A stretch of DNA of 60,466 bases, filler included, from 6 parts of 6 records of this genome joined end to end with filler, not necessarily neighbours in it; one strand, 5' to 3'. Positions 41,734 to 58,250 are shown, numbered from the whole stretch's first letter. Notes: a model not told the origin generated them from the sequence alone. Numbers and translations are program-made.

Positions 41734-42477
41734 GTGAAACAAATTTTAACCTTTTGCCTGGTATCTACCATTTATTTTACCTGCTGGGGTTTAACAGACG
41801 GTTGTTGCCAAAGCAGCTCTACGATCCGGGGAACTGTGAAAGCCATTAAACCAACACCAGTCTTGAGTCCTGAAATCACAATATTGAAACAGGCGGATGA
41901 TGGAAACATCATTGAAAAAAAATTTACTGCGGTTTTCTTACAGAACGACACCGGATGTGTTGACTGGAATGCCCCTGAAAACCGTTTAAAGGCGTTGGTG
42001 TTCAACCTTTTGCCGGGCAATGTGGTTGAAATAAGTTATGCGCGTCAAAATGGGAGGCAGGAAATTAAAACAATCAGGCTTTTGTCCCTTTCCTCAACAA
42101 CGCTTTTTCCGGGATACGAAAAAGTAAAACATGGGCAGTTGCTAACGGATCTTCAGATGCCGGAACCCAAAAAACCTGTGATTGTTTTACTCAAGGGGCA
42201 TGAAAAACTATCATCCCGCATGAAAATGAAAGACAAGCGCCAGTCAGTCATTAAGGAGATCAAGGTGCTTCAGAACAAAGTGCTTGGGGCAATTTCCAAA
42301 GAGGCGTTTACCCCGGGTCTGATTTTGACAAATGTTCCTGTGATTTCAGGAGATGCCACCCTTGAAGGCATTAGGGTTTTGGCTGGGAATCCGCTTGTGG
42401 AAACCATTGAATCTGATATGCCGATGGAGCTTCATGGTGATGGTGTCAAGTCCATGCAGATGGGAGGAGAAAAATGA
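41734..42477 (+). CDS. Exported protein with a C-terminal stand-alone subtilase propeptide (inhibitor I9-like) domain
   Basis: N-terminal hydrophobic signal. VIVLLKG..LQNKVL..NVPVISG..GIRVLAG.PLVETIESDMPMELH aligns with the prodomain of the next gene. RBS AAGGAGG, GTG start. Confidence 0.7.
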   Translation: MKQILTFCLVSTIYFTCWGLTDGCCQSSSTIRGTVKAIKPTPVLSPEITILKQADDGNIIEKKFTAVFLQNDTGCVDWNAPENRLKALVFNLLPGNVVEISYARQNGRQEIKTIRLLSLSSTTLFPGYEKVKHGQLLTDLQMPEPKKPVIVLLKGHEKLSSRMKMKDKRQSVIKEIKVLQNKVLGAISKEAFTPGLILTNVPVISGDATLEGIRVLAGNPLVETIESDMPMELHGDGVKSMQMGGEK

Positions 42478-43937
42478 TGAATTTGTATCGATTTACTATG
42501 TTCTGTTGCGCTGTAGTGCTGATGCTTTGCTGGCCTGCCTGGACAATCGCTTTCCAGGGAATTGAAAAAATAAAGGATCCGGAACTGCTGGAGCAGGCTG
42601 AAAAAACATTAGAACCTGTGCAGGTTATTGTTGTTCTAAAAGGCTGTGAAGAAGTCAAGGACATACATTTCGGCAAAGATGTTTTCACAAAATCGTCTGT
42701 CCAGTCAAAGGTTGCCCGTATCCAGGAAAAAGTGCTTAGCCGGATGCCTTTTGAAAATGGCCGGATTCGGTATCGAATGGAAAATTTGCCCATCATATCG
42801 GGCGAAGTTTCTTATTCAGGTCTGAAATCGTTGGCAGGACTTGAAGACGTTGTGATGATCGAAAAAGACCATCCCTTGGAATTACATACAGCACAAGGCC
42901 TTGAGTTAATTGAAACCGGCAGTTACCGGTATCCAGACAGTGGCAGGTCTGTTGCCATCGCGATTGTAGATACCGGTGTGGATTATTCCCATCCAGCATT
43001 GGGGGGCAGAAGGTTTCCAAATGCAAAAGTAATCGGAGGTTACGATTTCGGTGATAAAGATTCGGACCCTATGGATAACCTGGGACATGGCAGCAGTTGC
43101 GCAGGCATATCAGCAGGCTGGGCCAGAAAACGGGGCGATTACAAAGGCGGGGTTGCTCCAGCAGCAGGCATATATGCATTAAAAGCCAGCAACCGGGAAG
43201 GCCTAATTCCAAGAAGTGCTAGTTTGGCGTCTATAGATTGGTGTGTTTCTCATCAATATGATTCTTCTGATCAACCCATTATGATTATATCCATGAGCCT
43301 TGGTACTCAAAATTTTCAATCGCATAGCTATTGTGATAACAAATTCAACTCCGCGCAGGCTAGTTTTGATATGGCCGAAGCCAATGGGATTGCGGTATTT
43401 GTTTCCTCTGGAAATGAAGCTAATCCAAAAGGAATAAGTTTTTCTTCTTGTATGAAAAACACTATTGCTGTAGGTGCCGTTTATGACGGCAGTTCTGGCG
43501 AGGCTAAATTCAACAATTGTAGCGATAGCTCAACTGCTTCCGATCAGGTTACCTGCTATTCTAATTCTGCACCTATATTGGACATGCTGGCACCTTCACA
43601 TGATGCTTACACTCCCTCCTGGCCAAATGGAAAATATAACCGGGAATTTGGAGGCACCTCAGCTGCCTGTCCATATGCAGCCGGTGCAGCCGCCTTGATT
43701 CAAAGCTACCATAAAGAAAAAACCGGCCGTTTCCTAAGTGTTAAAGAACTCAAAGCACTTATGATTGAAACAGGAGATCCAATTAAGGACCAAAAATCAG
43801 GGATTACAACCCCCCGCGTAAATATCACCAAAGCCATACAATCACTAAATCTTGAGGGTGATCGGAGCGAGGGAGGAGAGGGGTCAAACAGAGCAATAGA
43901 TCAATTAAGGGATTTATTGCAAAATGCAAATCAATAA
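42474..43937 (+). CDS. Secreted S8 subtilisin-like serine peptidase
   Basis: Signal peptide, prodomain, triad IVDTG / HGSSCAG / GTSAACP, oxyanion SSGN. Confidence 0.93.
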   Translation: MMNLYRFTMFCCAVVLMLCWPAWTIAFQGIEKIKDPELLEQAEKTLEPVQVIVVLKGCEEVKDIHFGKDVFTKSSVQSKVARIQEKVLSRMPFENGRIRYRMENLPIISGEVSYSGLKSLAGLEDVVMIEKDHPLELHTAQGLELIETGSYRYPDSGRSVAIAIVDTGVDYSHPALGGRRFPNAKVIGGYDFGDKDSDPMDNLGHGSSCAGISAGWARKRGDYKGGVAPAAGIYALKASNREGLIPRSASLASIDWCVSHQYDSSDQPIMIISMSLGTQNFQSHSYCDNKFNSAQASFDMAEANGIAVFVSSGNEANPKGISFSSCMKNTIAVGAVYDGSSGEAKFNNCSDSSTASDQVTCYSNSAPILDMLAPSHDAYTPSWPNGKYNREFGGTSAACPYAAGAAALIQSYHKEKTGRFLSVKELKALMIETGDPIKDQKSGITTPRVNITKAIQSLNLEGDRSEGGEGSNRAIDQLRDLLQNANQ

Positions 43938-43951
43938 AATTTATTTTAAAA

Positions 43952-44072
43952 AATTGTACGGTTTTTTAATTTGTCCGTAAGGTATAGTTGAGCATGAAAA
44001 CAACTAAGTTAAGGTCGTCATCTTAAATTTTAAGAATATGCGGCACATTTTACTCTTATTAAACAAAGGAGA
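43952..44072 (+). promoter_or_regulatory. Putative promoter/leader, copy 2
   Basis: TTTGTCCGTA (43970-43979), TTACTCTTA (44050-44058) and AAACAAAGGAG, matching 41611-41730. Confidence 0.45.
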
Positions 44073-44078
44073 ACAATT

Positions 44079-45053
44079 ATGGAAAAATCGTTTCAAATTC
44101 TGTTTATGACAGCCATGGTCATGTTGAGTCTGACGGCATACACGGTCACCGCTTTTGCAGATGTAAAAGCTATCGGTATCCGCTCCGGCGGCGGCAGCAG
44201 CGGCGGCGGAAATGGTGACGGCAATCCGTTAAAAGTGGAATTTACCCCGGTCAAACAGGTCTTTAAAACCGGTGAGGCCATCCGTTTTAAAGTCAGGGGA
44301 TCTGAAACATTTTACCTGTATCTTTTCAGCGTGGATGAAAGAAATAATAAAGGGTATATGATTCTGCCCAACAAAAAACAGCAGTATATTAAATATAAAG
44401 CCGGAACAACTTATACCGTACCGGAAAAATATATTGAATTTTACAGTGATTCCCCAGGCCGGGAAAAAATTATCATGCTGGCCAGCACCAAACGAATGGA
44501 TGTGAAATTTGACAGGTATGCCAAGGTCGGCAATCTTCTCTCTGCCAATTTTGACACGGTTGTTCAGGAAACCAAGGCGCTTGGCATCCGCTCCCGCCAG
44601 GCTAAAGCCAAACATGTTACCAAAGAATTGTCCCTGATAATAACAGGAAATGGACAACACGCAGGTGTTGTGCCTCCCAGTCATCGTGGCAGTGATCCGG
44701 CAGCAGCACCGTTTGTTTCTACAAACAAATCTTCGTACCGGGTTGGAGATGCCATCCGTATCACCTTTGGTGCCGATAAATCCGGATATGTACATCTTTA
44801 TATCAACGAACCCGGTGGCCGCCAATCCTTTCTGACTACAAAAAAGGTTTCCGGCAGGGACTTTTACCAGGTGAACGCCACGGCTTCCAGGCCCGGCGGG
44901 GTCCATCAGATTATCGCCGTGTATGACAATAACGCCACCCCGGATAAACACCGGATCTATACGCTTGCAACCAAACAGATGTCCAAGGATATTCGCCTGG
45001 CCCCTGATACGCCGGATGCCTACGCCGTTTATGACTTCATTATTGAGGAGTAA
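44079..45053 (+). CDS. Secreted tandem DUF4384-domain protein
   Basis: Signal ending AFA; FKTGEAIRF..YLYLFSVD..ILPN..YTVP..PGREKI and YRVGDAIRITF..GYVHLY..PGGVHQI. Confidence 0.78.
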   Translation: MEKSFQILFMTAMVMLSLTAYTVTAFADVKAIGIRSGGGSSGGGNGDGNPLKVEFTPVKQVFKTGEAIRFKVRGSETFYLYLFSVDERNNKGYMILPNKKQQYIKYKAGTTYTVPEKYIEFYSDSPGREKIIMLASTKRMDVKFDRYAKVGNLLSANFDTVVQETKALGIRSRQAKAKHVTKELSLIITGNGQHAGVVPPSHRGSDPAAAPFVSTNKSSYRVGDAIRITFGADKSGYVHLYINEPGGRQSFLTTKKVSGRDFYQVNATASRPGGVHQIIAVYDNNATPDKHRIYTLATKQMSKDIRLAPDTPDAYAVYDFIIEE

Positions 45054-45060
45054 AATAATC

Positions 45061-45576
45061 ATGAGAGCTTCAATTCTGCTTACCGGCCTGCTCATCAGTG
45101 TGGCCCTGTTATCCGGCGGGTGCAAAAACACAGACTATGTTCATGTCGGACCTAACTGGAAAGCCCTTCACGACATGGAGCCTGAAAAAAATGCATTTTC
45201 AGTCACCGTGAAAGGCACCCGTGAAGCCCCACTGGGAAAAGCGCTTTCTTATACGGTTTATTCCGGCGAAACCGGAAAGCTTTGGGTCGTGCAGGTGGAT
45301 CCTGATGATAAGGTTTCCGTTATTGTCCCCAATGCTGAAATGCAGGACCATCAAATTCTAAAAAATGTTCCCCTGCATATTCCACCCCAAGGTGCCCACT
45401 GGGAAATGGCTGCCATGGAGCCTGTGGGAAAAAGTGTGCTCGGTTTTTTTGTGACAACAGGGGATGAAGATATCAGTGCTATCCTGTCCCAGGGACAAGG
45501 AACATCCAAGGCGATCCATGTAAGACCGGTCTCTGAATGGGGCATGGATAAAATGGTCGTGGATATCAAACCATAA
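45061..45576 (+). CDS. DUF4384-domain lipoprotein
   Basis: Lipobox LSGGC; GKLWVVQVDPDDKVSVIVPN..HIPP..EPVGKS; start at ATG 45061. Confidence 0.75.
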   Translation: MRASILLTGLLISVALLSGGCKNTDYVHVGPNWKALHDMEPEKNAFSVTVKGTREAPLGKALSYTVYSGETGKLWVVQVDPDDKVSVIVPNAEMQDHQILKNVPLHIPPQGAHWEMAAMEPVGKSVLGFFVTTGDEDISAILSQGQGTSKAIHVRPVSEWGMDKMVVDIKP

Positions 45577-45583
45577 ACCGCTA

Positions 45584-45605
45584 AAAGGCGCCAAAAGGCG
45601 CCTTT
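45584..45605 (+). terminator. Intra-cluster stem-loop (partial terminator or RNA stabiliser)
   Basis: AAAGGCGCC-AAAA-GGCGCCTTT between the DUF4384 genes and the first caspase gene. Confidence 0.6.
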
Positions 45606-45640
45606 ATTCATATTGCTTCAAAAAGGACAGGAGATAGGAA

Positions 45641-47026
45641 ATGAAAGGTCACTCTTATTGCACACAGCGGGGAATATTTTTTATTCTGGTTTGCTTATTG
45701 TTAAGTGCCTGGCCGGCCTTTGCAGAGAACCGGGCATTGATCATTGGGGTGGGAAAATATCAGATATCATCGGGCAATCTGCCGGGTATTGAAAAAGATG
45801 TTGAAATGGCCAAGAAGATCGCACAGGCAATTGGATTCAAATCCAGCCAGATCAAGGTGCTCAGGGATGAGCAGGCCACCCTTGACAATATCGGCAGTAC
45901 GATCAGCAGCTGGTTGATTCAAGGCACCACCAAAAACGACCGGGTTTTCTTTTATTTCAGTGGGCACGGTTCACATGTTCTTGACACCGACAGGGATGAA
46001 AAAGACAATGCCGATGAGGTCCTGCTGCCCCATGATACACAAATTAAAGGTAAAACCTTAAAAAATGTTTTTTTAGATGATGTGTTCGGTAAAATGCTGG
46101 CAAAAATTCCTGCCAGGGAAAGTTTTGTATTTATCGATGCCTGCCACAGCGGTACCAGTACCAAGTCTTTTGGCAGTTCCGATCAAAAAGCCAAATTCTT
46201 TATATACCCTGGAATGCCTCGCCTGGTCGGAAAAGCCAACTTTTCCACCCAGCCCAGGCGCCGGGCCATAACCCGGGAGCGGTTTGCCTCTTTGAGTGCT
46301 TGTCAGGATGATGAAACGGCCATTGCCACACGGGACGGCAGCCTGTTTACCCGGGGATTGTATGATGCCATCACTAAATCCAATGGGAAACCGGTTTCCC
46401 TCAAATTGTTGAAAAAAAGTACCACGGCTTATATTGCCGCCCATGCATCGCCTGACAAGGTCCACCACCCGGATTTGGCGGGCAGTAAAAAACTTCAAAG
46501 AAAAGATATTCATGTTACCAGTGCCGTATCATCACCCTCGGAATCCAGCCTTTGGGATCGGGTGATGTTGCTGACCGAAGGAGCGGACTATAAAGTACCG
46601 GTTCGTACCAGCCAGTCCAAGTTTAAGGAAGGGGACCTGCTGAAAATTTCACTGACCATGCCCCATGACGGATATGTCAATGTGGTGAATTTAAGCCCGA
46701 ATGACACGAAATCGACGATATTGTTTCCCAATGGATATCATAAGAAAAATTTCTTCAAGGCCGGCACCCGGATTACAATTCCGGGTAAAGATGACGACTT
46801 TAATTTGCCGGCATCTCCGCCTTTTGGAAAAACCCTGATCGCAGTGTTTGTGACCACACAGGAAATTAATTCATATAAAAAAGGGCTTGGGAATTCGGGG
46901 GATCTGATCAAACTCATGTCCAGTGAAACCGCCGGGGAATTTGATGCGGTCAGAGGTAGTTTTTCCGTTCAGGCAAAATCCGTAGGGCTGGGCGCAGGCA
47001 GGGTGATCGCTTTAGTTGAACCGTAA
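45641..47026 (+). CDS. Secreted caspase-like peptidase C14 + DUF4384
   Basis: Signal ending AFA; RALIIGVGKY, LPGIEKD, FSGHG (H109), DACHSG (C168), SLFTRGL; C-terminal DUF4384 (FKEGD..GYVNV..LFPN..PPFG). Confidence 0.9.
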   Translation: MKGHSYCTQRGIFFILVCLLLSAWPAFAENRALIIGVGKYQISSGNLPGIEKDVEMAKKIAQAIGFKSSQIKVLRDEQATLDNIGSTISSWLIQGTTKNDRVFFYFSGHGSHVLDTDRDEKDNADEVLLPHDTQIKGKTLKNVFLDDVFGKMLAKIPARESFVFIDACHSGTSTKSFGSSDQKAKFFIYPGMPRLVGKANFSTQPRRRAITRERFASLSACQDDETAIATRDGSLFTRGLYDAITKSNGKPVSLKLLKKSTTAYIAAHASPDKVHHPDLAGSKKLQRKDIHVTSAVSSPSESSLWDRVMLLTEGADYKVPVRTSQSKFKEGDLLKISLTMPHDGYVNVVNLSPNDTKSTILFPNGYHKKNFFKAGTRITIPGKDDDFNLPASPPFGKTLIAVFVTTQEINSYKKGLGNSGDLIKLMSSETAGEFDAVRGSFSVQAKSVGLGAGRVIALVEP

Positions 47027-47067
47027 TGTCCATGAACGATACCTCACCATCAAGGAGACAAAAAAAA

Positions 47068-48966
47068 ATGAAAACAATGATCCGACTGATTGGGCTTAGC
47101 CTGCTGGCACTCAGCATTACCCTCCCTTCTTTGGCAATGGCTGCCGATAAAAAAGCGATGCCAACCGGCATGTTTGAGCTGTATGCCATGAACGAAAAAG
47201 ACAACATCGGCAACTACATCACCGAAGACTTCATTCTTACGGCCTATGCCATGATGGTTAACCAAAGTATTACGGATATGGAACAGGCCGTGGTCATGCC
47301 GGCGTTTAAGACTCTGTTGACTGCCATGGTTCAGCATTTGAAAAATAACCCGCCCTCCAAATTGCCGGTGGATGTTGCAGCCCATAAAGCCAACCTTAAT
47401 TATCTGAGCGTGGTCAAAGCCCTGGCATTTGGTCACACAAAAATCAAGGACGCCCCGGACGGTGACACCGCCAATGGGGAACTTTCTGCCGTGATGGGTG
47501 CCAAAGGGATTGCCGTATCCCCATTGGTGCAGCAAAAGATTGACTACACCCAATTCAAGGTTCGGGGTAAATATACCCGTACTGCTGAACTGAAGAACTA
47601 TTTTCGGGCGATGCGGTACAGCAGCACTGTATTATTCCCGGTGCTTTCATCCAAAGCGACAGGTATTACGGAAAAGCAGGCGGATTTTCTGACTGCCCAG
47701 GCCCGTGCCCTGGCTGAGCTGATTCAAAATCAGCCGAAAATCAAACAGCAATATGACAGTATCAACGAAAAATTATCCTTTTTGTTCGGGCCGCCCGATG
47801 ATTTGACCGTTGGCGACTATATAAAGGTCTCTTCTGCCGTATCCCCTGAAACCAAGCTCCCGGCCCTGAGGAAAAAATTGGCTGAGTTTGCTGGAAAGCA
47901 CAGCAAACAGCCCCGGATTATTGCCGGTATCGTGAACCAGTCTGCTTTGAAAAAAGAAAAGCGCAGCGCATCGGAAGTTATGACCGGATTTCGGTTAATG
48001 CCCCTGCGGTTCACCCCGGACAGCGCGGCCTTACAGGAATTATGCTACAGCCGCCTGTCCGGCGATTACCAGGGTAAGGATAAAAAACAGCCTCCTTTTT
48101 CCATGGTCCTGGCTGGCGGCCGCCCGGTTAAAGGATTCCCCCTGACCCTTGAGCTGATGGCTCTGTCCGGGTCAAAGGCCGCTGAGACGATCCTGGCCGG
48201 TTCCGGCGACCAGGCATACAAGGGGTATGATGTGGCATTCAAAAAGGCGAAAGCCGGTCTTGACCAGGGCAACGGTCTGGCCGCAGATCACCTGGCACTG
48301 ATTGCCTACTGGCTGAAAAGAGGTCAGGATATCCAGGTAAACAATGATCCTGCCAGGCGCCTGAACACCAGTCTGGGGTTTTATACCTGGCACCGGTATA
48401 TCAATATCCTGTATGCCAAACAATCTTACAGTGCAGTGGCTAAAAGTCTTTTGATATCACAGTCCCGCAGCACTGCATGGATTGAACCGGCACCTGAACT
48501 CTATCTTCTTTTGAAAAATCAGGTGGGCAAGCTGAGCAAGCACTTTGCAGATCCCCGGTATACCCGCAGGATGAGTACGTTTGCCGGACTGCTTGAACGC
48601 TGTCATGACATTGCCCGCAATATTGTTCTTGGAAAATCCCTGTCTGCGGCTGATACAGGCTTTTTAAATACCTTGGATCAGGCGTTTAAAAAATTATTGC
48701 CTGGTGAAGACCATCCCATTGTTGTGGATATCCACACGGATGCCAATTCCGGCAAGGTGCTGGAACAGGCCCTGGGATATCCTCAAATCGTTGAGCACGA
48801 TACCGGGAAGGGCCGAACACGGGGCGCACTATTCACCCATTATGAATTTAAACAGGACATGGATAAACGGTTGACGGACAGGGAATGGCAGCTGATTCTC
48901 ACTGCTGACCCGAAATTGGCTAACTTTCAGATGGCACCGGGTCCCGATTCGGGTACAAAACCATAG
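47068..48966 (+). CDS. Secreted DUF3160-family protein
   Basis: Signal ending AMA; YITEDFIL, DYTQFKVRGKYT..YFRAM, FRLMPLRFTPDS, ILYAKQ, VVDIHTD, YEF..RLTDREW. ATG 47068 after AAGGAG. Confidence 0.8.
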   Translation: MKTMIRLIGLSLLALSITLPSLAMAADKKAMPTGMFELYAMNEKDNIGNYITEDFILTAYAMMVNQSITDMEQAVVMPAFKTLLTAMVQHLKNNPPSKLPVDVAAHKANLNYLSVVKALAFGHTKIKDAPDGDTANGELSAVMGAKGIAVSPLVQQKIDYTQFKVRGKYTRTAELKNYFRAMRYSSTVLFPVLSSKATGITEKQADFLTAQARALAELIQNQPKIKQQYDSINEKLSFLFGPPDDLTVGDYIKVSSAVSPETKLPALRKKLAEFAGKHSKQPRIIAGIVNQSALKKEKRSASEVMTGFRLMPLRFTPDSAALQELCYSRLSGDYQGKDKKQPPFSMVLAGGRPVKGFPLTLELMALSGSKAAETILAGSGDQAYKGYDVAFKKAKAGLDQGNGLAADHLALIAYWLKRGQDIQVNNDPARRLNTSLGFYTWHRYINILYAKQSYSAVAKSLLISQSRSTAWIEPAPELYLLLKNQVGKLSKHFADPRYTRRMSTFAGLLERCHDIARNIVLGKSLSAADTGFLNTLDQAFKKLLPGEDHPIVVDIHTDANSGKVLEQALGYPQIVEHDTGKGRTRGALFTHYEFKQDMDKRLTDREWQLILTADPKLANFQMAPGPDSGTKP

Positions 48967-48979
48967 GGGGAAAAATAAA

Positions 48980-49861
48980 ATGAAGAAAGCCTATTTCGTT
49001 TTAATGGCTTTAGTGGCATTGGCATTGTGCTGGGTTGCAGTTGTTCCGCCCGTTGCAGCAAGCCAGGGATGTCAACAGGCAAAACACCTTTATGATTTGG
49101 CAATAGGCCATTCCGACAATCAGGAAAAAATTCGGCTTCTGGAGGAAGTTGCCGATGTATGCCCCGATTTTAATACCTATTTCCAATTGGGAAAAGCATT
49201 TGAAAAAGAAAAAAAGTATAACGAAGCGCGGATGGCTTACAAGGATGCGCAGTTGACAACAGAAGAAGAAAGGCTGCAGGCCAATGCTTTGATCATGATC
49301 GGGGGAACTTATGAAACGCAAGGGTCAATGCAGGCGGCGATCCGGCATTACCGGCAGGCACAGATGGTTCATGAGAATCCTAAAGTTGAGGCTCATTTGC
49401 AAAAACTTGTCCTGTCTCTGGCAGGAGAATATGTTTCCCAGGATGATATAACCCGGGCATTGACGGAATCCACAAGATCCCTCAGGGGGTTTTCCGTTGC
49501 TCCCAAGATTGATCTTTACATTAACTTTGACCTGGACAGCCATGCACTTTCCAGCCACGATGCGCAACAACAGGCTGAGGCACTTGGCCGTGCCTTGATG
49601 GACAAAAGCCTGAAAGGCAGGCACATTCATATTGTCGGGCATACGGACAGCCAGGGTGATGCATCCTATAATATGTCACTGTCAATGAAACGGGCCCAAA
49701 GTGTGAAACGGTTTTTGATCGGACAATTTCCCGCTTTAACATCCCATTTGTCCCTCACAACCCAAGGAAAAGGCGAGACCGGCCTGCTGATTTCTCCGGA
49801 AGTCACACAGCGGCATTTCGCTGCCAACCGCCGGGTAGAGGTCGTGCTGCAATACAAATAA
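48980..49861 (+). CDS. Secreted TPR + OmpA-C (peptidoglycan-binding) protein
   Basis: Signal peptide; TPR-like helices; INFDLDS, IVGHTDSQG..YNMSLSMKRA, GKGE, NRRVE. Confidence 0.88.
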   Translation: MKKAYFVLMALVALALCWVAVVPPVAASQGCQQAKHLYDLAIGHSDNQEKIRLLEEVADVCPDFNTYFQLGKAFEKEKKYNEARMAYKDAQLTTEEERLQANALIMIGGTYETQGSMQAAIRHYRQAQMVHENPKVEAHLQKLVLSLAGEYVSQDDITRALTESTRSLRGFSVAPKIDLYINFDLDSHALSSHDAQQQAEALGRALMDKSLKGRHIHIVGHTDSQGDASYNMSLSMKRAQSVKRFLIGQFPALTSHLSLTTQGKGETGLLISPEVTQRHFAANRRVEVVLQYK

Positions 49862-49890
49862 TACTACGGATAGGAGGCCTGATCATAAAT

Positions 49891-51609
49891 ATGACTTCTC
49901 AAAAAAAAAGCAGGTTCATGGGTGTGTGCGTTGGCCTGGTGCTGTGCCTGACCGTTATTTTCCCGGCCTGGGCAGCCCATCATGCCCTGCTCATTGGCGT
50001 AGGCGAATATCCGGGCCTGCCGCCGAAAGCGCAGTTGGAGGGCCCGGTGTATGATGTGGCAGCTTTGAAAGAGCTGCTGATCGCCGAGCTGAAATTTGAG
50101 CCGGGTAATATTGTAACGCTCACCGATGCCCAGGCCACTAAAGACGGGATACTGACTGCCCTGGATAACCTGCATAAAACGACATCACCCGATGATTTTG
50201 TATTTATTTATTTCAGTGGACATGGCACAAGCCCCCAGGACAAGGGGGCCCGGAAAATGAAAATAGATGATATGGGCACGCCTTACACCGGTGCCGTTTT
50301 GCCTTTTGATTTTTCCATTGAGGGCAGTGCAGCCCAAATAATGGGCAGGCTGATCATCGGTAGCCGGGATATCCGGCCACGTATAGAGCGCTTGGATAAA
50401 GACCGGCGGATCTTCGGCGTGTTTGATGCCTGTTATTCTGAAAATGCTTTCCGCAGCCTTGATGTGCCAAAAACACGGCATGTGATCATACCCTGGGACC
50501 GCGCAACAAGAAGTATCGGGGATTCATTGATCGACGATACCCCGTCGGAGACCAAGCAGACACCGGCCCCGGTTTCTGCACCAAGCCCTTATAAAAACAC
50601 GGTATTTTTATCGGCAGCATCCAAAGGAGAACCGGCAAATGACATGGTTCAACGTGATATGCCCCACAGGTATACTACCTTTGACGGCAATTCCCATGGT
50701 GCATTGAGCAATGCCTTGCTCATTGGTTTAAACGGGGCCGCAGATCTGGATGGCAACGGTAAAATTACTTATCGGGAACTGCACAAAAACGTTCGACTTA
50801 AAGTGGAACAAGATTTCCATCACACCCCCCGGCTTCTGGTGCCGGAAAACCGGCCCTCCATGAAAGATGACATGGTTTTTCACGCCAAACGGGGCGGACA
50901 AATCCGACCGAATCCACCACTCCCTGCAGGTCCGCTGAAAGTCACGGCCAAGGGAAGTGCAAAGCGGTTTCTCTCCGCTATCGCGGACATTCCCGGAGTC
51001 AAACTGGGTACGGAAAACGATTTTGACCTGATGATAAAGGCCGCACCGGCCGGTGCGGGCAACAATAGTGACACAGAAAAATTTGAATTGTATCTGTCCA
51101 ACGGGGGAATGCTGGCTGAACTGCCTAAATCTAAAGTCCTGGAAAGGATCAAGGCCCAGGTCAAAGTCAAAACACTGCTGGAAAAAACATGGCCAAATTC
51201 CGGATCTAACGTGTTTCTTGAAATTCTTGGCAAGCAGGGGATACTGTTTGAAGGGGATTCTCTTGGATTCTCCATTGAGACCCAGTCTGATGCCTATATT
51301 CTGCTTATCAATATTGACCATGCCGGTAACATTAACGTGGTTTATCCCTATGATGAGTCGGAAACGGTCATCGTTAAAAAGGGACAAGGGCTCCATATGC
51401 CGGGTGTTTGCCGGGTAACCGGGGAATTTTTGGGCACGGAATACTTAAAGGTGTTTGCCTTCCCGGCCCTGCCTGCAGAAATTTCAACACTGATGGGTGA
51501 ATCTTTTTCCCCTGAAGATCCATTGTTTAATACCCTTTTGACCATGCTCAACCAACAAAAAAAGGGCGTGACCACTACAAGGATGCTGAAAACGGAAAGA
51601 CGGCAATAA
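49891..51609 (+). CDS. Secreted caspase-like peptidase C14 + DUF4384
   Basis: Signal ending AWA; HALLIGVGEY, LEGPVYD, FSGHG (H111), DACYS (C181), EF-hand-like DLDGNGKITYREL; C-terminal DUF4384. Confidence 0.88.
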   Translation: MTSQKKSRFMGVCVGLVLCLTVIFPAWAAHHALLIGVGEYPGLPPKAQLEGPVYDVAALKELLIAELKFEPGNIVTLTDAQATKDGILTALDNLHKTTSPDDFVFIYFSGHGTSPQDKGARKMKIDDMGTPYTGAVLPFDFSIEGSAAQIMGRLIIGSRDIRPRIERLDKDRRIFGVFDACYSENAFRSLDVPKTRHVIIPWDRATRSIGDSLIDDTPSETKQTPAPVSAPSPYKNTVFLSAASKGEPANDMVQRDMPHRYTTFDGNSHGALSNALLIGLNGAADLDGNGKITYRELHKNVRLKVEQDFHHTPRLLVPENRPSMKDDMVFHAKRGGQIRPNPPLPAGPLKVTAKGSAKRFLSAIADIPGVKLGTENDFDLMIKAAPAGAGNNSDTEKFELYLSNGGMLAELPKSKVLERIKAQVKVKTLLEKTWPNSGSNVFLEILGKQGILFEGDSLGFSIETQSDAYILLINIDHAGNINVVYPYDESETVIVKKGQGLHMPGVCRVTGEFLGTEYLKVFAFPALPAEISTLMGESFSPEDPLFNTLLTMLNQQKKGVTTTRMLKTERRQ

Positions 51610-51619
51610 GGAAGCTACA

Positions 51620-54490
51620 ATGAAAAATAAATTCTCAGTACAATGTTGTGTTCTGTTTTTGATGTTCTGGGTGATGGGAGGGGCCGCTGCCGCCCCAAGC
51701 CGCCCGCCATCAACCGAACCCATTCTCCGGCTTGGAACAAAAATGCATTTTTCTACGATAAGGCGGATCAGTAGTGATGCTTCAGGCCGGTATATTCTCA
51801 CCTGCAGCGAGGATAAAACGGCAAGGCTCTGGGACGGGGAAACCGGTGATCTTGTCAGAATTTTAAGAGTTCCGTTAGAAAAAGGAAAGGAGGGCAAACT
51901 GCGTGCCTGTGCCCTTTCTCCTGACGGAAACATTGCGGCTGTGGGAGGGTTTACAGGTTACAAGTATTCGGGAAAAATCGTCATCTATCTTTTTAGTACA
52001 CTCACAGGTGAAATGATCCAAAGGCTGACGGGTATGGAAGGTGTCGTTTGTGACATCGAATTTTATTCCAATCATTTATTTGCTGCAGCCCTTGGCGGAA
52101 AAACCGGCATCCGGGTATTTAAAAAAACCGGAACCCGTTTTGTTCAGCATCACAAAGATACAGACTATGGCGGACCAACTTTAAATTTGGCTTTTGGTAC
52201 AGATGGCCGGCTGGCATCTGTTGCCTTTGACGGTTATATCCGCCTTTATGATGCTGAATTCAACCTTATAAAAAAGAAGAAGGCAACGGGCGGGAAAAAG
52301 CCCTATTCACTTACTTTTTCTCCGGATAATACCAAACTGGCAGTTGGATATGGTGATACCGCTGCCCTGGAAGTACTGGACACGGGCAACCTTGACGTCC
52401 TCTACCGGCCCGATAATAAGGGTGCCGATACCCCGGGCCTGCAGTTGAACAAGTTAAGCTTCGGGACGGACGGGTGCCTCTACGGAGGCGGGCTCTATGA
52501 TCAATCCATTGAAGGCAGGCAGTGGTTTTTAATTCGCAAATGGGCTGATTATGGCCGGGGAAAGTTTTTGGATTTTAAAGCCGCCGGCAATACGGTTATG
52601 GATATTAAGGCATTTGGAAACGGGCTTGTTATGATGGCCGGCAGCCGGCCGGATATGGCTTTGTTTACAGCGTCCGGAGACAGGGTGTTTTATAAAACCG
52701 GCGAAGTGATGGATTTTGGGCATAAAGACCGGTTTGAATTTTTTACAGTGAGCCGGGATGGCGGCCGGATTACATTTAAACCCACGGGGGCTGATCCGCT
52801 TACCTTCAGCATTGCCGACAGGGCACTGAAACCATTTTCCAAAAAATTTGACTCTTCCCGGGATAGCCGCGCGGGGCTTAATATTACAGACTGGAAAAAT
52901 ACGGATTGCCCAAAACTCAACGGCTGTCCATTGGATTTTCTGGATCGATATGAGACCTGTCGAAGTATAGATATCGGAGCGGATGGCACTCTTCTGGTGG
53001 GTGCCGCCTGGTCAATTTATGCGCTGGACAAAACAGGAAATCAAAAATGGAGAGCACAGGTCCCCGGCGAAGCCTGGGCCGTTAAGATTGCCCCGGATAA
53101 TAAAGTCGCTGTGGCAGTTCATGACGGGGGGGAAATCCGTTGGTACAGGATGAAAGACGGTGCACTGCTTTTGTCCCTGTTTGTCCATCCGGACAGAAAA
53201 AGATGGATTCTGTCTACCCCCCAAGGGTATTATGATTCTTCCCCCGGAGCAGATTCCCTTATGGGCTGGCATATTAACAAGGGTCCGGAACAGGCTGCAT
53301 CTTTTTATCCCATGTCCCGTTTTCGGTCATCATATTACCGGCCGGATGTTTTGGCTAAAGTGATTGAGTACGGTGACGGTGGAAAAGCGCTGGAGGCAGC
53401 GGACAAGGGCAAGAAAAAAAAGCCGTTATCCATTGTGAAAATGGTACCGCCGGAAGTGGTCATTGTTTCCCCTGAAAATAATGCTGTGGTTTCTTCGGAT
53501 ACAATCCGTGTCAAATACCGGGTCAACACGCCTTCAGGGGAAGCAGTCACTGGAATTAAAGTGATGGTGGACGGACGGCCTCTGGACCGTCAGCGGGGAA
53601 TTAAGCGGGTAAAAAAAGGAGATGTTGTTGAAGTTAATGTTCCGGTGCCGCCCCGGGATAGTACGCTGTCTATTATCGCCGAAAACCGGTATGCTGCAAG
53701 TGAACCGACAAAAGTCAGGTTGAAGTGGAGCGGGCCTGACAAGTTCATTCTCAAACCCAAACTCTATGTTCTGGCCATGGGCAGTTCCTTGTACGACGAT
53801 GAGGACCTTCAACTGGATTTTCCGGCAAAAGACGCCCAGGATTTTGCTGCTGTGTTAAGACAGCAAAAAGGGGGCATTTATAGGGATGTGGAAGTGAATT
53901 TGCTTGATAATCCCTCAAGGGATGATATTTTAGATGGTTTGGATTGGATTGAAAGGCAGACCACAGATCTTGATGTGGCAGCAGTGTTTCTGGCCGGCCA
54001 TGGGGTGAATGACAGAAATGGAAAATACTACTACCTGCCCATTGACACGGATCGTGATAGAATCAAACGGACCGGGATATCTTATTCAGCCATCAAAGAC
54101 ACGATCACCGGACTGGCCGGCAAGGTGCTTTTTTTTATCGACACCTGCCATTCCGGTAATGTGATGGGAGCGCGGCGTGGTGATACAGGTGATCTGAATC
54201 AGGTTGCAAATGACCTGTCCTCTGCTGAAAACGGGGTTGTGGTCTTTACCTCTTCCTCAGGGACCCAGTATTCACTGGAAAATCATTCTTGGGGCAACGG
54301 GGCATTTACCAAAGCTGTGGTCGAAGGATTGTCCGGGAAGGCCGATTACCATCGGGACAATAAAATATCCATCAATGAACTGAAATTGTTTGTGGCTGAG
54401 CGGGTTAAAGAACTGACCCGGGGGCAGCAGACCCCCACAACCTGTCAGCCTGAAACAATTACCGATTTTCCCATTGTGTTGATACAATAA
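51620..54490 (+). CDS. Secreted WD40 beta-propeller + Ig-like + caspase-like peptidase C14
   Basis: Signal peptide; WD40 repeats (TCSEDKTARLWD, SVAFDGYIRLYD, GEIRWY); TPQGYYDSSPG; PPEVVIVSP Ig-like domain; LAGHG (H794), DTCHSG (C843), GAFTKA, GQQTP. Confidence 0.9.
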   Translation: MKNKFSVQCCVLFLMFWVMGGAAAAPSRPPSTEPILRLGTKMHFSTIRRISSDASGRYILTCSEDKTARLWDGETGDLVRILRVPLEKGKEGKLRACALSPDGNIAAVGGFTGYKYSGKIVIYLFSTLTGEMIQRLTGMEGVVCDIEFYSNHLFAAALGGKTGIRVFKKTGTRFVQHHKDTDYGGPTLNLAFGTDGRLASVAFDGYIRLYDAEFNLIKKKKATGGKKPYSLTFSPDNTKLAVGYGDTAALEVLDTGNLDVLYRPDNKGADTPGLQLNKLSFGTDGCLYGGGLYDQSIEGRQWFLIRKWADYGRGKFLDFKAAGNTVMDIKAFGNGLVMMAGSRPDMALFTASGDRVFYKTGEVMDFGHKDRFEFFTVSRDGGRITFKPTGADPLTFSIADRALKPFSKKFDSSRDSRAGLNITDWKNTDCPKLNGCPLDFLDRYETCRSIDIGADGTLLVGAAWSIYALDKTGNQKWRAQVPGEAWAVKIAPDNKVAVAVHDGGEIRWYRMKDGALLLSLFVHPDRKRWILSTPQGYYDSSPGADSLMGWHINKGPEQAASFYPMSRFRSSYYRPDVLAKVIEYGDGGKALEAADKGKKKKPLSIVKMVPPEVVIVSPENNAVVSSDTIRVKYRVNTPSGEAVTGIKVMVDGRPLDRQRGIKRVKKGDVVEVNVPVPPRDSTLSIIAENRYAASEPTKVRLKWSGPDKFILKPKLYVLAMGSSLYDDEDLQLDFPAKDAQDFAAVLRQQKGGIYRDVEVNLLDNPSRDDILDGLDWIERQTTDLDVAAVFLAGHGVNDRNGKYYYLPIDTDRDRIKRTGISYSAIKDTITGLAGKVLFFIDTCHSGNVMGARRGDTGDLNQVANDLSSAENGVVVFTSSSGTQYSLENHSWGNGAFTKAVVEGLSGKADYHRDNKISINELKLFVAERVKELTRGQQTPTTCQPETITDFPIVLIQ

Positions 54491-54499
54491 GGAGTTCTA

Positions 54500-55414
54500 A
54501 TGAAAAAAGTAATTTTTTTTAACGTTTTTTTGTACGGTTTTATTTCATTGTTGATTCTGTCTGGCTGCATGATGCCGCAGGGAACAATTGAGCCTGTGCA
54601 GGGTGATCAGTGTGCGCAAAATCTGTATAAATTACAATCGTATGACAAATCAAATGCAGTGACCTCTTCTGCGATGTCCTGGACAAAATGTATAGCAGAA
54701 TGCGAGCTTAAAGCTTTTCTGACAGGTGGGGAAGAAGACTGCAAAGCCAAGTGTAACAGTCAGGTCGATACAAAAAAAATAGTTAACAACTTTATTTCAA
54801 CTTCGGAAGAAGAACAAATGCGACTGAGGCAGATCAACCTTGAAATTGACCGCCTTCAGCAGTGCCGGAATCAGGAATCCAGACTGATACTTGCGGGATT
54901 AAAAAGCAAAAATTCCGTTAGAAGAAAAAATGCCCGGGCCGACTACAAAGTTTTCGTGGAAAAAGTCCAAAATGACAACCGTCTATTAGACAAACTTTTA
55001 GCTGCATCCGGAGAGCGCATCTCTGAACATGAAAAGACAATGACAGAACTCAATAAAATGAATGATGATTCGGGCATTAATGTACGTGCAGGATACAATA
55101 TACGCAGTGCACCATCTACAAAAACCGGTCAAATTATCGGAAAAACAGGCTCAAGGGCAACAATCAGGCAGGTCCAAGGCAGATGGGTCTGTATCGACTA
55201 TCTTTCGCATGAAAAGGCATATGTCCATATCAAAGCGTTTCCCTCTCTTTCTCCTGGCAGCCAAACAGCGCCCGGCAAGAAAAATAATGCAGCAGCCCAT
55301 GAAGCTCATGTCGCGACCCAAAGACAACATGCTGAATCTGTTGAAAAAAAATCCGATTATGCCAGCGGTATGGATCTTCGTTTGTCTGAACTGGATGAAG
55401 CGAGCATTTCCTAA
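54500..55414 (+). CDS. Lipoprotein with Cys-rich segment, coiled coil and SH3b-like domain
   Basis: Lipobox ILSGC; CIAEC..CKAKC; NIRSAPSTKTGQIIG..GRWVCI. Confidence 0.7.
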   Translation: MKKVIFFNVFLYGFISLLILSGCMMPQGTIEPVQGDQCAQNLYKLQSYDKSNAVTSSAMSWTKCIAECELKAFLTGGEEDCKAKCNSQVDTKKIVNNFISTSEEEQMRLRQINLEIDRLQQCRNQESRLILAGLKSKNSVRRKNARADYKVFVEKVQNDNRLLDKLLAASGERISEHEKTMTELNKMNDDSGINVRAGYNIRSAPSTKTGQIIGKTGSRATIRQVQGRWVCIDYLSHEKAYVHIKAFPSLSPGSQTAPGKKNNAAAHEAHVATQRQHAESVEKKSDYASGMDLRLSELDEASIS

Positions 55415-55437
55415 ACATATATAGGAAGGAAGAAAAG

Positions 55438-56055
55438 ATGAAAAAAAAGTCTATTTGTTTGGGTTGGCTGTGGATCTGCGTATTTTTTTTAGCCGGTCAT
55501 GGTGTTTGGGCAAGTGAAAAAATGGTCAAGGCCAAAATTGGAATTGAGATTTTTACGGGTCAAGATATTCAACGTGCAAAATCCAGGGATACGTTAAAAC
55601 CGGGGGATAAAATTCGCATTTACGTCCATACCCGGGAAAGTGCCAATGTCTATGTGGTGTCCACTGACAAGAAAAAAGCCATTCTGCTCAATATGACCAA
55701 TCCAAAAATCGGTGAGCCCACGTTTGTATGTCTGCCGTCTGCCGATGCCTACTACAAAGTGGACGGTATCTCGCCTGTTGAACGGTTGATCATTTTGTGC
55801 AGCCAGGAAAAAATACCTGAAATCTCTAAAATGACCGACTCGGGAATACCATGGAGCCAATGGGTTGACATAGAAGCCAGGCTTTCCAATCAAAGCACTG
55901 TTTCTTTAACCCAGTCTTTAAAACCGACCATTGAAATCGCTGGAAATACCAAGGGGTTGGATGGTGCTGTTGCTAAAGACGATTTTGTAGATACGCTTCC
56001 CACCTATTCGGGCAAAGGACTGCTGACAAAAATATATGAGTTCAAAATTCAATAG
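55438..56055 (+). CDS. Secreted DUF4384-like protein
   Basis: Signal ending VWA; LKPGDKIRIYV..ANVYVV..LPS..YKVD..ERLIIL. Confidence 0.68.
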   Translation: MKKKSICLGWLWICVFFLAGHGVWASEKMVKAKIGIEIFTGQDIQRAKSRDTLKPGDKIRIYVHTRESANVYVVSTDKKKAILLNMTNPKIGEPTFVCLPSADAYYKVDGISPVERLIILCSQEKIPEISKMTDSGIPWSQWVDIEARLSNQSTVSLTQSLKPTIEIAGNTKGLDGAVAKDDFVDTLPTYSGKGLLTKIYEFKIQ

Positions 56056-58198
56056 AAAAAAAAGGTTTGGCCTGGTTTTTTGTATTGCCCTGCTTTTTAT
56101 TTTTAGTTTGTTTTTGTTTTGGAGATGGAATGGAAAGTTCTGGACCCGGTATGATGCCATAGCCCTTGACTATGTTTACCGGTTGGCCGTTAGCAAAGGC
56201 AAAGGTCCGGCGTCTTCATTTATGCCTCGGGTCACGTACCTGATTATCGACGATGATACATACCGGTATTTTGGTAAAAATGCCTTGTCCCGCATTGATT
56301 TAGCCCGGATCAACAATGCACTGGTACGTCTCAGTCCCCTGGCGGTTGCGTATGACATTATTTTTGCCATGCAAGGTCCCGTGGATTCGGACCTGCAGTT
56401 TGCCAAATCCATTGCCGACCTTGGGTGCGTTTTTTTGCCAGTGGGGTGTGCGCTTTCCAACACGCCGGTGTCACCTGGAACGCTTCCGGAACTCAGTCAG
56501 TTGGCTGCACCTGAAATATACGGACAGGGCAAGCCTTTTCATGCTACCCGGATTCTTACGCAGCAGGGCAGATTCAGGCTGGCTGCAAAAGGGATTGGAG
56601 ATATCAGTGTCCAGGCAGATTCTGATGGGGTATATCGGCATATACCCTTGCTGATCAAGGTGGGCGATGATTATTTGCCGACCTTAAGTTTGTCTATGTT
56701 TTTGGATCACGCCGGCATTTCCTGGGATCAGATCCAGGTCCGTTGGGGAAAGCATATTTCCTTGCCCGGTCCCAAGGAAACAATCCGTATTCCCATTGAC
56801 CACAGAGGCAGGGTGTTCATCCCTTTTGTGGCTCCTATGGGAAAGGATTTCCCCGTTGTTGGGGTCCATACTTTTCTTGACGCCTCACAAAATGACGACC
56901 TCAGGGGGAATCTTGAAGAATTATTTGAAGGTAATTTTATCATAATTGCGGATGCGGCAACCGGTGCAGCAGACATAGGGACGACTCCCCTGGAAAGGGC
57001 CGTTCCACTGGTTAATATCCATGGTGCCCTGCTCAATGGGCTGTTGACCAATTCATTTTATCACAAGTGGCCTTCCCCAAAAGTCATTACCTGTCTTTCT
57101 TTGATGTTGATCCTGTTTACGGTCAGCACGGCGCTTGGAGCCCGATTAGTATTATACGGTTCTGGAATTCTTATCTTTGTGACCCTTCCCTTTTTAACCT
57201 GGTATGAATTTATTCATTTCAGACTGTTCCCTGTTACCACGGTGATGCTGTCAGGCGCATTGCTGTTTGCCTTATTGGTTGTTGCGTTGGAATACATCTC
57301 CTCAATCGACAGAACTGCCATCCGGGATATATTTTCCAGATATGTTCCCAAATCAGTGGTCAAAGAGTTGCTGGCAAATCAGAAAAAGCTTGAGTTGGGT
57401 GGAGAAGAAACAACAGCCACGGTTTTATTTTCCGATATTGTTGGTTTTACCACTATTGCCGAATACCTGAAGCCAGGAGAACTGGTTTCTTTACTCAACC
57501 ACTATCTTACCGAGATGGCTGATATTATACTAGAACAAGAAGGGATCATTGATAAGTTTCAAGGCGATGCCATCATGGCGGAATTTGGTATACCGCTTCC
57601 GTCCCAAGACCATGCGGACAGAGCCGTAACAGCAGCTATCGCCATGCAGGATCGTCTTGTCGAACTTAGAAAAGAGTGGAAAAAAGAGGGGAAGCCTCAG
57701 CTTTATTGCCGTATCGGGATTAACACCGGAAAAATGGTTGTGGGGAACATGGGGTCCAGGCAGTGTCAAGACTACACGGTGATGGGAGATGCTGTAAATC
57801 TGGCGTCAAGGCTGGAGGGAGCAAATAAATTATATGGCACCGATATCATGATTTCCGAATTTACGCTCAATGCATTAAAACAAAGGCGGTATACTTATAG
57901 ATTGCTGGATGTTATTAAAGTTAAGGGAAAAGCCGAAGCAGTAACCGTCTATGAGGTGTATGGATTCAGTGGGGATTTTATAGGGGAAAACGAAGAAAAA
58001 TATTACAGTTGCTATGAACAGGCTTTTGATGCGTATCTCAGCCGAGATTTTAAAACGTCAGAATTAAATTTTCAGAACGCTCTAACTTATCGCCCCAATG
58101 ATCCTGCCGCCAGTGAAATGATTCTCAGAGTTAAAAGCCTATTTTTAAAAAAGCTTCCACCTATTTGGGACGGGTCTGTATCTCTGAAATCTAAATAA
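56036..58198 (+). CDS. CHASE2-domain class III adenylate cyclase with C-terminal TPR-like tail
   Basis: TM; CHASE2 (IIDD.T, YDIIF, DSDGVYR, TPL...IHG); three TMs; VLFSDIVGFT, DKFQGDA, DYTVMGDAVNLASRLE (Lys/Thr pattern indicates ATP), VKGK. Confidence 0.92.
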   Translation: MSSKFNRKKRFGLVFCIALLFIFSLFLFWRWNGKFWTRYDAIALDYVYRLAVSKGKGPASSFMPRVTYLIIDDDTYRYFGKNALSRIDLARINNALVRLSPLAVAYDIIFAMQGPVDSDLQFAKSIADLGCVFLPVGCALSNTPVSPGTLPELSQLAAPEIYGQGKPFHATRILTQQGRFRLAAKGIGDISVQADSDGVYRHIPLLIKVGDDYLPTLSLSMFLDHAGISWDQIQVRWGKHISLPGPKETIRIPIDHRGRVFIPFVAPMGKDFPVVGVHTFLDASQNDDLRGNLEELFEGNFIIIADAATGAADIGTTPLERAVPLVNIHGALLNGLLTNSFYHKWPSPKVITCLSLMLILFTVSTALGARLVLYGSGILIFVTLPFLTWYEFIHFRLFPVTTVMLSGALLFALLVVALEYISSIDRTAIRDIFSRYVPKSVVKELLANQKKLELGGEETTATVLFSDIVGFTTIAEYLKPGELVSLLNHYLTEMADIILEQEGIIDKFQGDAIMAEFGIPLPSQDHADRAVTAAIAMQDRLVELRKEWKKEGKPQLYCRIGINTGKMVVGNMGSRQCQDYTVMGDAVNLASRLEGANKLYGTDIMISEFTLNALKQRRYTYRLLDVIKVKGKAEAVTVYEVYGFSGDFIGENEEKYYSCYEQAFDAYLSRDFKTSELNFQNALTYRPNDPAASEMILRVKSLFLKKLPPIWDGSVSLKSK

Positions 58199-58225
58199 CG
58201 GCTATGGCCGTTCGTTATTTTTTTG
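58193..58225 (+). terminator. Possible terminator or stem-loop between cyclase and HD-GYP genes
   Basis: AACGGC-TATG-GCCGTT (alternatively AAATAACG/CGTTATTT) followed by a T run. Confidence 0.45.
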
Positions 58226-58250
58226 TTTTTTAAAATTTATAAGGTGTTTC

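Follow-up and report, generated by a model that had tools for sequence, protein, structure and literature searches.

The stretch of DNA analysed here (the window: 60,466 nucleotides, made of six parts of six records of one genome joined end to end with filler) carries at positions 41734-59945 a single row of genes, all of them on the + strand, delineated from translations and a Pfam scan, in which three caspase homologues are encoded together with a set of DUF4384 proteins (Pfam: PF14326). Five of the six DUF4384 domains in this row share a short motif centred on a lysine or arginine and placed just ahead of their last β-strand. This tail motif is genuine; it is kept in the relatives of the individual proteins, and we found additional copies a few residues past the catalytic cysteine of the encoded proteases and at the mature N-terminus of one of the DUF4384 proteins. 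We tentatively read it, with a probability of about 0.4, as a shared recognition or cleavage site, with the Lys/Arg in the P1 position, for the co-encoded exported metacaspase-like proteases. This reading is ranked first because it would explain the conserved segments of low model confidence, the copy in the proteases' own loop and the N-terminal copy, and it is favoured by the Arg/Lys-type proteases, the conserved interchange of Lys and Arg, and the gene linkage.

The original prediction had quoted the motif from five of six domains, and every one of its strings is present in the translations, all on the + strand. The first two belong to a secreted two-domain DUF4384 protein of 324 amino acids (44079-45053; two Pfam stretches, E 2.7e-21), which has an ordinary signal peptide and contains ETKALGI...KELSLII and SKDIRL...AVYDFII. 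Its domain-1 tail motif, KALGIRS (amino acids 166-172), is encoded at 44574-44594 and followed by the terminal strand KELSLIIT at 44622-44645, and its domain-2 tail motif, KDIRL (amino acids 303-307), at 44985-44999, with the terminal strand AVYDFII at 45024-45044. The third, SKAIHV...DKMVVDI, is found in a 171-residue DUF4384 lipoprotein (45061-45576; Pfam E 1.1e-9; motif KAIHV at 45508-45522, terminal strand at 45538-45570), which has its closest relatives in Desulfobacter curvatus (89%) and D. latus (84%). The fourth, VRGSFSV...GRVIALV, ends caspase 1 (45641-47026), an exported metacaspase-like protease fused to DUF4384 (Pfam E 3.6e-19; tail RGSFSV at 46952-46969, terminal strand at 46997-47020), and the fifth, TKGLDG...TKIYEFKI, a secreted protein encoded at 55438-56055 (motif IAGNTKGLDG at 55936-55965, terminal strand at 56017-56049). 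The DUF4384 gathering score is passed by both stretches of the two-domain protein, by the lipoprotein and by caspases 1 and 2; the 55438 protein stays below it (17.4 bits vs 27; E 0.0047) and is hence called DUF4384-like. The sixth domain, a partial DUF4384 in caspase 2 (49891-51609; Pfam E 5.3e-8, profile positions 4-55 of 81), lacks a conserved basic motif, and in the alignment of its orthologues a helix and a Thr-containing last strand are found. In the five motif-bearing domains, sequences and models agree on the proposed order of domain core, long variable connection, basic motif, spacer and terminal strand.

Within each family the basic residue is strongly conserved. Among 25 sequences of the lipoprotein family, K150 and V166 are each found in at least 90%, and C21, Y26, H28, V29, G30, W33 and W160 are invariant. 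Lys is present in both tails of the two-domain protein in all 15 sequences (the window protein and 14 orthologues from related loci), R438 of caspase 1 is invariant in 16/16 fusions, and the 55438 family has K/R-G in 12/12 full-length relatives and Arg in 28/28 complete metagenome tails. A profile of domain plus tail collected 11,986 cluster representatives at E ≤ 0.001, the best 150 of which were analysed; with the window protein added to 121 representatives, these yielded 122 two-domain proteins, in which Lys or Arg occupies the motif position in 111/122 first and 96/122 second domains. Position +2 is hydrophobic in all 122 of them and position +4 mostly so. A strict pattern, [KR][GASDN][LIVFM]x[LIVMF], occurs in 193 of the 285 tails of the 150 best proteins, compared to 39.6 ± 5.9 in shuffled tails (maximum 57 in 200 shuffles), and its density in tails is four times that in domain cores. 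Since the motif is conserved in orthologues and exceeds the shuffled expectation, an origin by chance is excluded. Three of the five window motifs conform to the strict pattern, and variants such as KDIxV or RDLxV are found in kinase-, OmpA- and PEGA-fused DUF4384 members.

We placed the motif on the fold with AlphaFold2 models of the lipoprotein (mean predicted local distance difference test score, pLDDT, 83.6) and of full-length caspase 1 (mean pLDDT 81.1, predicted template modelling score 0.58). The lipoprotein model consists of a sandwich of seven strands, a connection of 27 residues and a terminal strand (residues 160-170, pLDDT ∼95); the connection comprises a short helix (138-141), a segment with pLDDT <50 (145-149), K150 and a two-residue DSSP bridge (152-153). 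The caspase 1 tail is built alike, with a helix at 428-439 that has R438 near its end, pLDDT <50 at 439-446 and a terminal strand at 451-460 (∼93). In both, the terminal strand is modelled within the sandwich core (pLDDT 93-96), and it is assigned to that core because the structural matches extend to residue 171. The best of these are the second macroglobulin domain (MG2) of C5 (Z 8.4, root-mean-square deviation 1.8 over 91 residues) and MG2 of human alpha-2-macroglobulin (A2M; Z 7.7), with Salmonella A2M at Z 7.4; RbmA (Z 8.0) and, with Z 7.8, a PKD domain score in the same range, where values of Z ∼8 are borderline and, according to the search tool, may reflect merely a common arrangement. 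Foldseek returned for the same model generic immunoglobulin (Ig)-like matches in the PDB only (best E 6.6e-4, template modelling (TM) score ≤0.44), and a sequence-profile search found no solved DUF4384 structure. As modelled, DUF4384 would thus be an Ig/macroglobulin-like β-sandwich whose last (G) strand lies in the core, some 50-70 residues beyond the Pfam model. That model (81 positions) ends before the motif and leaves out the fold's last two strands throughout the family, so that annotated DUF4384 limits appear to be ∼50-70 residues too short and the motif would redefine the domain boundary even if its reading as a cleavage site fails.

A separate observation concerns the N-terminus of the mature lipoprotein. 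The segment YVHVGPNW, encoded at 45136-45159, comes just after the lipidated cysteine (Cys21); it is invariant, forms the most conserved part of the family and receives no structure in the model (pLDDT ∼58). A loose resemblance to the tail of the same protein (AIHVRP..W) is seen in the window sequence.

The original prediction had named burial of the motif in the folded core as an outcome that would speak against it. The models divide the motif region in this respect: the terminal strand is placed in the core, and the basic residue borders the least confident segments of both models. The conserved motif region is thus modelled at low confidence directly beside terminal strands at 93-96, a combination typical of elements that become ordered on a partner.

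The same models allow a purely structural explanation, in which the motif forms a short strand at the sheet edge, paired with the terminal one, and is kept for folding only, its Lys/Arg capping the rim of the hydrophobic core or forming a salt bridge to an invariant aspartate. Positions 0, +2 and +4 would then face one way, in keeping with the hydrophobic residues at +2 and +4, with the DSSP bridge at 152-153 of the lipoprotein, where the invariant D80, D83 and D135 are available as partners, and with the persistence of the motif in proteins from genomes without a Peptidase_C14 match (see below). Folding alone would nonetheless leave the conserved stretch with the lowest model confidence, and other DUF4384 subfamilies fold as the same Pfam domain with a helix replacing this segment. 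It would also have to accommodate the recurrence of the motif in the caspase loop past the catalytic cysteine and an N-terminal near-copy that varies in concert with the domain-1 tail and is attached through a flexible linker. We rate the structural explanation as unlikely, if as the most credible of the alternatives.

A basic residue beside a flexible loop, in a fold whose closest (borderline) matches are macroglobulin domains, also recalls a bait: the stand-alone DUF4384 proteins, which had been proposed as bait-loop inhibitors, might trap or block the caspases in the manner of p35, serpins or A2M. A sub-threshold A2M_BRD match (18.1 bits vs a cut-off of 22.7) points the same way. The proteins are only 171-324 amino acids long and lack a thioester domain, p35 and serpin families are absent from the Pfam matches at E ≤ 0.01, the Z-scores lie in the common-arrangement range, and the presence of the motif in the proteases' own fused tails suits substrates or autoregulation better. 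The analogy with p35 itself is not supported, as no p35 family was matched at that threshold in 13 proteins and no p35 chain appeared among the listed matches of the DUF4384 model. Bait-loop inhibition is, in our judgement, the least probable of the explanations considered.

The proteases encoded in the row are of a type that suits a basic P1 residue. All three window caspases, namely caspase 1, caspase 2 and a protein composed of a WD40 propeller, an Ig domain and a caspase domain (51620-54490), have signal peptides in their translations and match Peptidase_C14 (Pfam E 1.2e-24, 1.5e-17 and 9.3e-20). The caspase 1 profile matches metacaspase-1 of Candida and yeast, GSU0716, AtMC4, AtMC9 and TbMCA2 (E 7e-25 to 3e-15), the paired stretches LpGidkD/LRGCIND, SGHG, GDEeDgaDE/GDEEDGMDD and DaChSGT/DSCHSGT including the catalytic His and Cys and the pocket aspartates, and metacaspases are also its top Foldseek matches (AtMC9, E 6.7e-14; GSU0716, TM score 0.72). 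Invariant among its 16 sequences are H109, C168, D53, D166, K175 and R438. In TbMC2, two S1 aspartates accommodate basic substrate residues, according to PMC6426788; D53 and D166 are their counterparts, and equivalents are readable in the sequences of caspase 2 and the WD40-caspase. With their signal peptides and with pocket aspartates that match those of TbMC2, the window caspases are exported and probably Arg/Lys-specific enzymes, a specificity read from pocket residues.

These enzymes carry the motif not only in the tail of caspase 1. Seven residues past its catalytic cysteine (Cys168 and K175, loop encoded at 46136-46171), caspase 1 has the sequence DACHSGTxTK[GSAR][ILFW], with K175 conserved in 16/16 and located in another model segment with pLDDT <50 (171-178). 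Lys is found at this position in 6/6 further fused representatives, and Arg in 11/12 orthologues of caspase 2 (R188 in the window, also seven residues after the catalytic cysteine; 50425-50460). The corresponding loop of the WD40-caspase reads GARRGD (54140-54184), and the neighbouring 55438 protein has GNTKGLDG. This stretch has no sequence match in the eukaryotic enzymes, the alignments with which end at CHSGT.

A third copy was found in the two-domain proteins. In the window protein, KAIGIRS (amino acids 30-36; 44166-44186) comes just after the predicted signal-peptide cut (AFA/DV), precedes a Gly-rich linker and is nearly identical to the domain-1 tail KALGIRS. Of the 122 two-domain proteins, 63 have the strict motif in the stretch from signal peptide to domain 1 (70 with a relaxed +1 position), a median of 17 residues ahead of that domain. 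Where all three sites are present (53 proteins), their K/R state is identical in 46. The N-terminal copy and the domain-1 tail share 3.83 of 8 residues, compared to 2.17 ± 0.16 after permutation (0/2000 reach the observed value), although such permutation tests ignore relatedness and therefore show variation that is concerted and lineage-specific, not a set of independent events. The copy is nearer to domain 1 than to domain 2, with identity at +2 in 44/53 vs 23/53 and at +5 in 20/53 vs 5/53, and a mutual-information check of covariation between the sites is a weak test at 53 sequences. In a minority of proteins, the hydrophobic part begins right at the signal-peptidase site (Ala-x-Ala) and the Lys is lacking (ten by regular expression, about seven of them genuine by eye, and about eleven more visible among unclassified rows); where the N-terminal Lys is present, it is preceded by a short acidic pro-piece. 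As the minority starts directly at the Ala-x-Ala site, these sequences suggest that a free N-terminus at the start of the hydrophobic part is what matters.

An N-terminal strand that resembles a C-terminal one invites an explanation by strand exchange, which the original prediction had proposed in general form. Here, cutting at the Lys/Arg would free the final hairpin, and an N-terminal strand of similar sequence, from the same subunit or a different one, would fill in, giving oligomers, fibres or a conformational switch. The specific likeness of the N-terminal copy to the domain-1 tail and its flexible linker fit this, as do the relatives that begin with a look-alike strand at the signal-peptidase site and the invariant, unmodelled N-terminal YVHVGPNW of the lipoprotein, and assembly through strand exchange mediated by a protease is an established principle, as stated in a report on type V pili (PMC13655056). 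With the cut, however, the terminal strand would be lost as a separate peptide and could not serve as a donor that links subunits; no pilin-like fold is among the structure matches listed, and the terminal strand sits firmly in its own domain (pLDDT 93-96). We thus regard strand exchange as highly doubtful, and no less so the specific version in which DUF4384 domains are protease-armed strand-swap modules, where the cut would free the C-terminal hairpin and the reserve N-terminal strand (KAIGIRS vs KALGIRS) would fill the vacated edge. If it were true, a periplasmic oligomer or switch would result, and in the family linked to CHASE2 receptors the released C-terminal peptide could be the long-sought sensor ligand.

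Gene linkage connects the motif-bearing proteins to caspases at several levels. A search with the lipoprotein alignment identified 16 genome loci from Desulfobacterales, Desulfarculia, Methylococcaceae, Lamprocystis, Aeromonadales and Contendobacter and, wherever their flanks suffice, a row of two-domain DUF4384 protein, caspase 1, lipoprotein, DUF3160 protein, TPR-OmpA protein and caspase 2 recurs; Desulfobacter curvatus DSM 3379 is one of the cultured carriers. In five genomes with this module, nearly all PF14326 matches lie inside that single locus. Across 151 genomes of the phylum, Peptidase_C14 is found in 24/31 DUF4384-positive and 24/120 DUF4384-negative genomes (odds ratio 13.7, p 4e-9).

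For the 55438 family, linkage points elsewhere. The 55438 protein by itself retrieved no relative from the genome contigs, and 30 metagenome loci were retrieved with an alignment. The window protein is followed by a class III nucleotide cyclase with a CHASE2 sensor (56036-58198), the start of which overlaps the end of the 55438 gene by 20 bases, and such a cyclase lies directly downstream of the homologue in 21/30 metagenome loci (four of the remaining nine have <300 bases downstream). The motif could accordingly be bound, and not cut, by a non-protease partner such as the CHASE2 sensor or, in the other module, the DUF3160 or TPR-OmpA proteins, which are constant neighbours there. The 55438 family is the best fit for this explanation, given a cyclase in 21/30 loci vs a caspase in 6/30, with Arg in every complete tail; it leaves the motif beside the caspases' own catalytic cysteine unexplained, and on the whole we consider it improbable, more so than the structural explanation and less so than strand exchange.

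Several further observations weigh against a cleavage site for caspases, beyond the relatedness behind the permutation tests. In a joint MAFFT alignment, the motifs of all groups do not fall in one column, so that their positional homology between groups is uncertain. The low pLDDT around the motif possibly stems from shallow alignments (16 and 25 sequences), and positions 0, +2 and +4 lie on one face of a strand, as in an edge strand or structural cap. A caspase is visible in only six of the 30 loci of the 55438 family, though Arg is present in 28/28 tails. Contrary to expectation, we found no positive association between motif and caspase among 20 further DUF4384 proteins of the same phylum, a small sample of related proteins from small and perhaps incomplete genomes: the strict motif occurs in 5/7 proteins from genomes without a Peptidase_C14 match and in 4/13 caspase-adjacent ones, the nine without it belonging to other subfamilies. 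Of the five motif-bearing genomes without Peptidase_C14, two have a CHAT protease elsewhere in the genome and three have no CHAT match. In one subfamily (tail ...T-RGVK[IL]...), the motif is found in members encoded between two WD40-caspases as well as in members with no caspase nearby. A helix replaces it in a different subfamily encoded next to caspases.

Taken together, the observation behind the original prediction is confirmed and extended by the post-Cys and N-terminal copies, and its first interpretation is partly supported in that a presentation of Lys/Arg to proteases is plausible. The low-confidence loops that abut the basic residue, the post-Cys copies and the N-terminal copy lend indirect support to such presentation to caspase homologues, and the lack of a tie to caspase presence, in a small sample, speaks against it. 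Under the cleavage-site reading, the long connection before the last strand would display the conserved Lys/Arg, with a small residue after it and, in the majority of subfamilies, two hydrophobic residues in alternation, and the exported metacaspase-like proteases would recognise this residue and cut there. Both the free-standing DUF4384 proteins and the DUF4384 tails of the proteases themselves would be dedicated substrates or regulators, nicked ahead of the final hairpin, and this nicking could be one step of a proteolytic relay in the periplasm, to which the CHASE2 cyclase module would also belong.

Caspase homologues are widespread in bacteria, and DUF4384, a domain with no known function, is among their commonest companions. 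To our knowledge, which rests on no dedicated search, no natural substrate of these proteases is known outside the CRISPR-linked Craspase. A Lys/Arg motif common to protease loops and DUF4384 neighbours provides defined residues to mutate and defined proteins to mix and, if it is a cleavage site, would offer a first logic of substrate choice for exported orthocaspases, together with a way to find what CHASE2 receptors sense.

The remaining genes of the row are, in order, an exported subtilisin-type (S8) protease that is first in the cluster (42474-43937; Pfam Peptidase_S8, E 5.1e-37), a DUF3160 protein (47026-48966; Pfam E 7.8e-85), a TPR and OmpA-like peptidoglycan-binding protein (48980-49861), a weakly SH3-like protein (54500-55414) and a GAF/HD-GYP protein (58251-59945), all on the + strand and identified by Pfam. 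The DUF3160 and TPR-OmpA proteins are conserved members of the module, and tblastn matches of at least 50 bits to the former are found in 14 of the 16 related loci. The S8 protease is an accessory gene, present in two of these loci only (L002 and L007). Upstream of it, positions 41734-42477 encode an unannotated 247-residue protein that is a paralogue of its N-terminal pro-region (residues 122-234 vs 24-138 of the protease, 37% identity, E 1e-14); by sequence, it could be a stand-alone propeptide or inhibitor, and the pair is also present in L002 and L007.

Some of the related loci show peculiarities of their own. In L003 (8513-9394), L006 (9326-9970) and L011 (9287-9964), a further small lipoprotein, a copy of the DUF4384 domain at the C-terminus of caspase 1, is encoded between caspase 1 and the lipoprotein gene. 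In L004 (7187-9844 and 13693-15444), from an uncultured deltaproteobacterial metagenome-assembled genome, the two-domain protein, caspase 1 and the DUF3160 protein each fall into two or three neighbouring pieces that lie in different frames, one of which runs into an Asp-Arg repeat; this may reflect sequencing-error frameshifts or a decaying module. A motif-bearing DUF4384 protein in L097 (genome G083, 3995-12485; no Peptidase_C14 match) is found among CHASE2, SpoIID-TPR, GNA1162-like β-helix and amidase-TPR proteins, and in L100, the locus of its orthologue, the flanking genes are two WD40-caspases.

Farther off in the window, we noted a Schlafen/AlbA_2 domain protein (14691-16460, - strand) and a fusion of an FGE-sulfatase and a methyltransferase domain (272-2428, + strand). 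Positions 18000-33000 have a G+C content of 0.32-0.39, compared to 0.44-0.57 in the flanks, and carry housekeeping-type genes (LpxK, SppA, UPRTase, RadC, M24 peptidase) together with a protein that bears a CHU_C type IX secretion sorting domain. This part looks Bacteroidota-like within a Desulfobacter-like window and may represent a chimeric contig or a large transfer.

Among known systems, the type V pili were the first analogy proposed. Gingipains and caspases share clan CD. Type V pilins (FimA, Mfa1) resemble the proteins described here in having β-sandwich subunits made from lipoprotein precursors (the 45061 protein is a lipoprotein, too), in which a cut by a clan CD Arg protease triggers a rearrangement of strands. 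They have two transthyretin-like domains, are cut in the loop after an N-terminal anchor strand and keep their C-terminal donor strand attached (PMC13655056). In all five window domains, in contrast, the cut would fall before the last hairpin, N-terminal of the last strand, and detach this hairpin or strand. No counterpart of the anchor-strand arrangement was found, as the Lys of the lipoprotein is residue 150 of 171 and the two-domain protein has an ordinary signal peptide. Pilins are missing from the 50 matches listed by Foldseek and by a wide structural search, an absence from the matches listed that does not exclude them. Type V pili belong to Bacteroidia, whereas the organisms here are Desulfobacterales and Gammaproteobacteria. 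With a conserved Lys this late in the chain, so that the last strand would separate from the body, the analogy is left without support.

GAIN and SEA domains are alike in being cut just ahead of a late β-strand that stays lodged until release, and differ in that their cuts are autoproteolytic and their folds unrelated. The likeness to A2M ends at macroglobulin-like Z-scores of 7.4-8.4: the proteins have no thioester domain and no multi-macroglobulin architecture, and the A2M_BRD match is below cut-off.

The Ig3 domain of the MALT1 paracaspase regulates its protease. MALT1 is similarly composed of an Arg-specific caspase fold followed by an Ig-like domain (Ig3), and Foldseek aligns both parts with caspase 1 (4i1p, E 2.8e-12, 426 columns). 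The root-mean-square deviation of 13 indicates a different domain arrangement, Ig3 and DUF4384 are unrelated in sequence, and MALT1 is cytosolic and eukaryotic. Metacaspases, as a family, are regulated by self-processing at Lys/Arg in a linker. Metacaspases and orthocaspases (Yca1, TbMCA2, AtMC4/AtMC9, GSU0716) share with the window enzymes the catalytic His-Cys pair, both S1 aspartates and the GDExDxxDE stretch; the window enzymes differ in being exported and fused to, or clustered with, DUF4384, and in having their candidate site seven residues past the catalytic cysteine.

DUF4384 itself is listed as an accessory domain of orthocaspases in the relevant passages of two cyanobacterial surveys and one pseudo-orthocaspase survey, and as the C-terminal domain of one kinase family in those of a kinase atlas. 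The DUF4384 passages of this orthocaspase and kinase literature, and of that on Csx30, make no mention of the tail motif. Csx30 is the substrate of the type III-E CRISPR protease Csx29 (Craspase), and its authors note that DUF4384 is often fused to proteases and assign the C-terminal domain of one group of Csx30 proteins to DUF4384 (bioRxiv 10.1101/2022.08.17.504292). Csx30 is cytoplasmic and, by the same account, is cut in an interdomain linker and not in a DUF4384 tail, in contrast to what we propose here; because of the domain assignment in this group, DUF4384 is nevertheless also part of a substrate that a caspase-like protease has been proven to cut.

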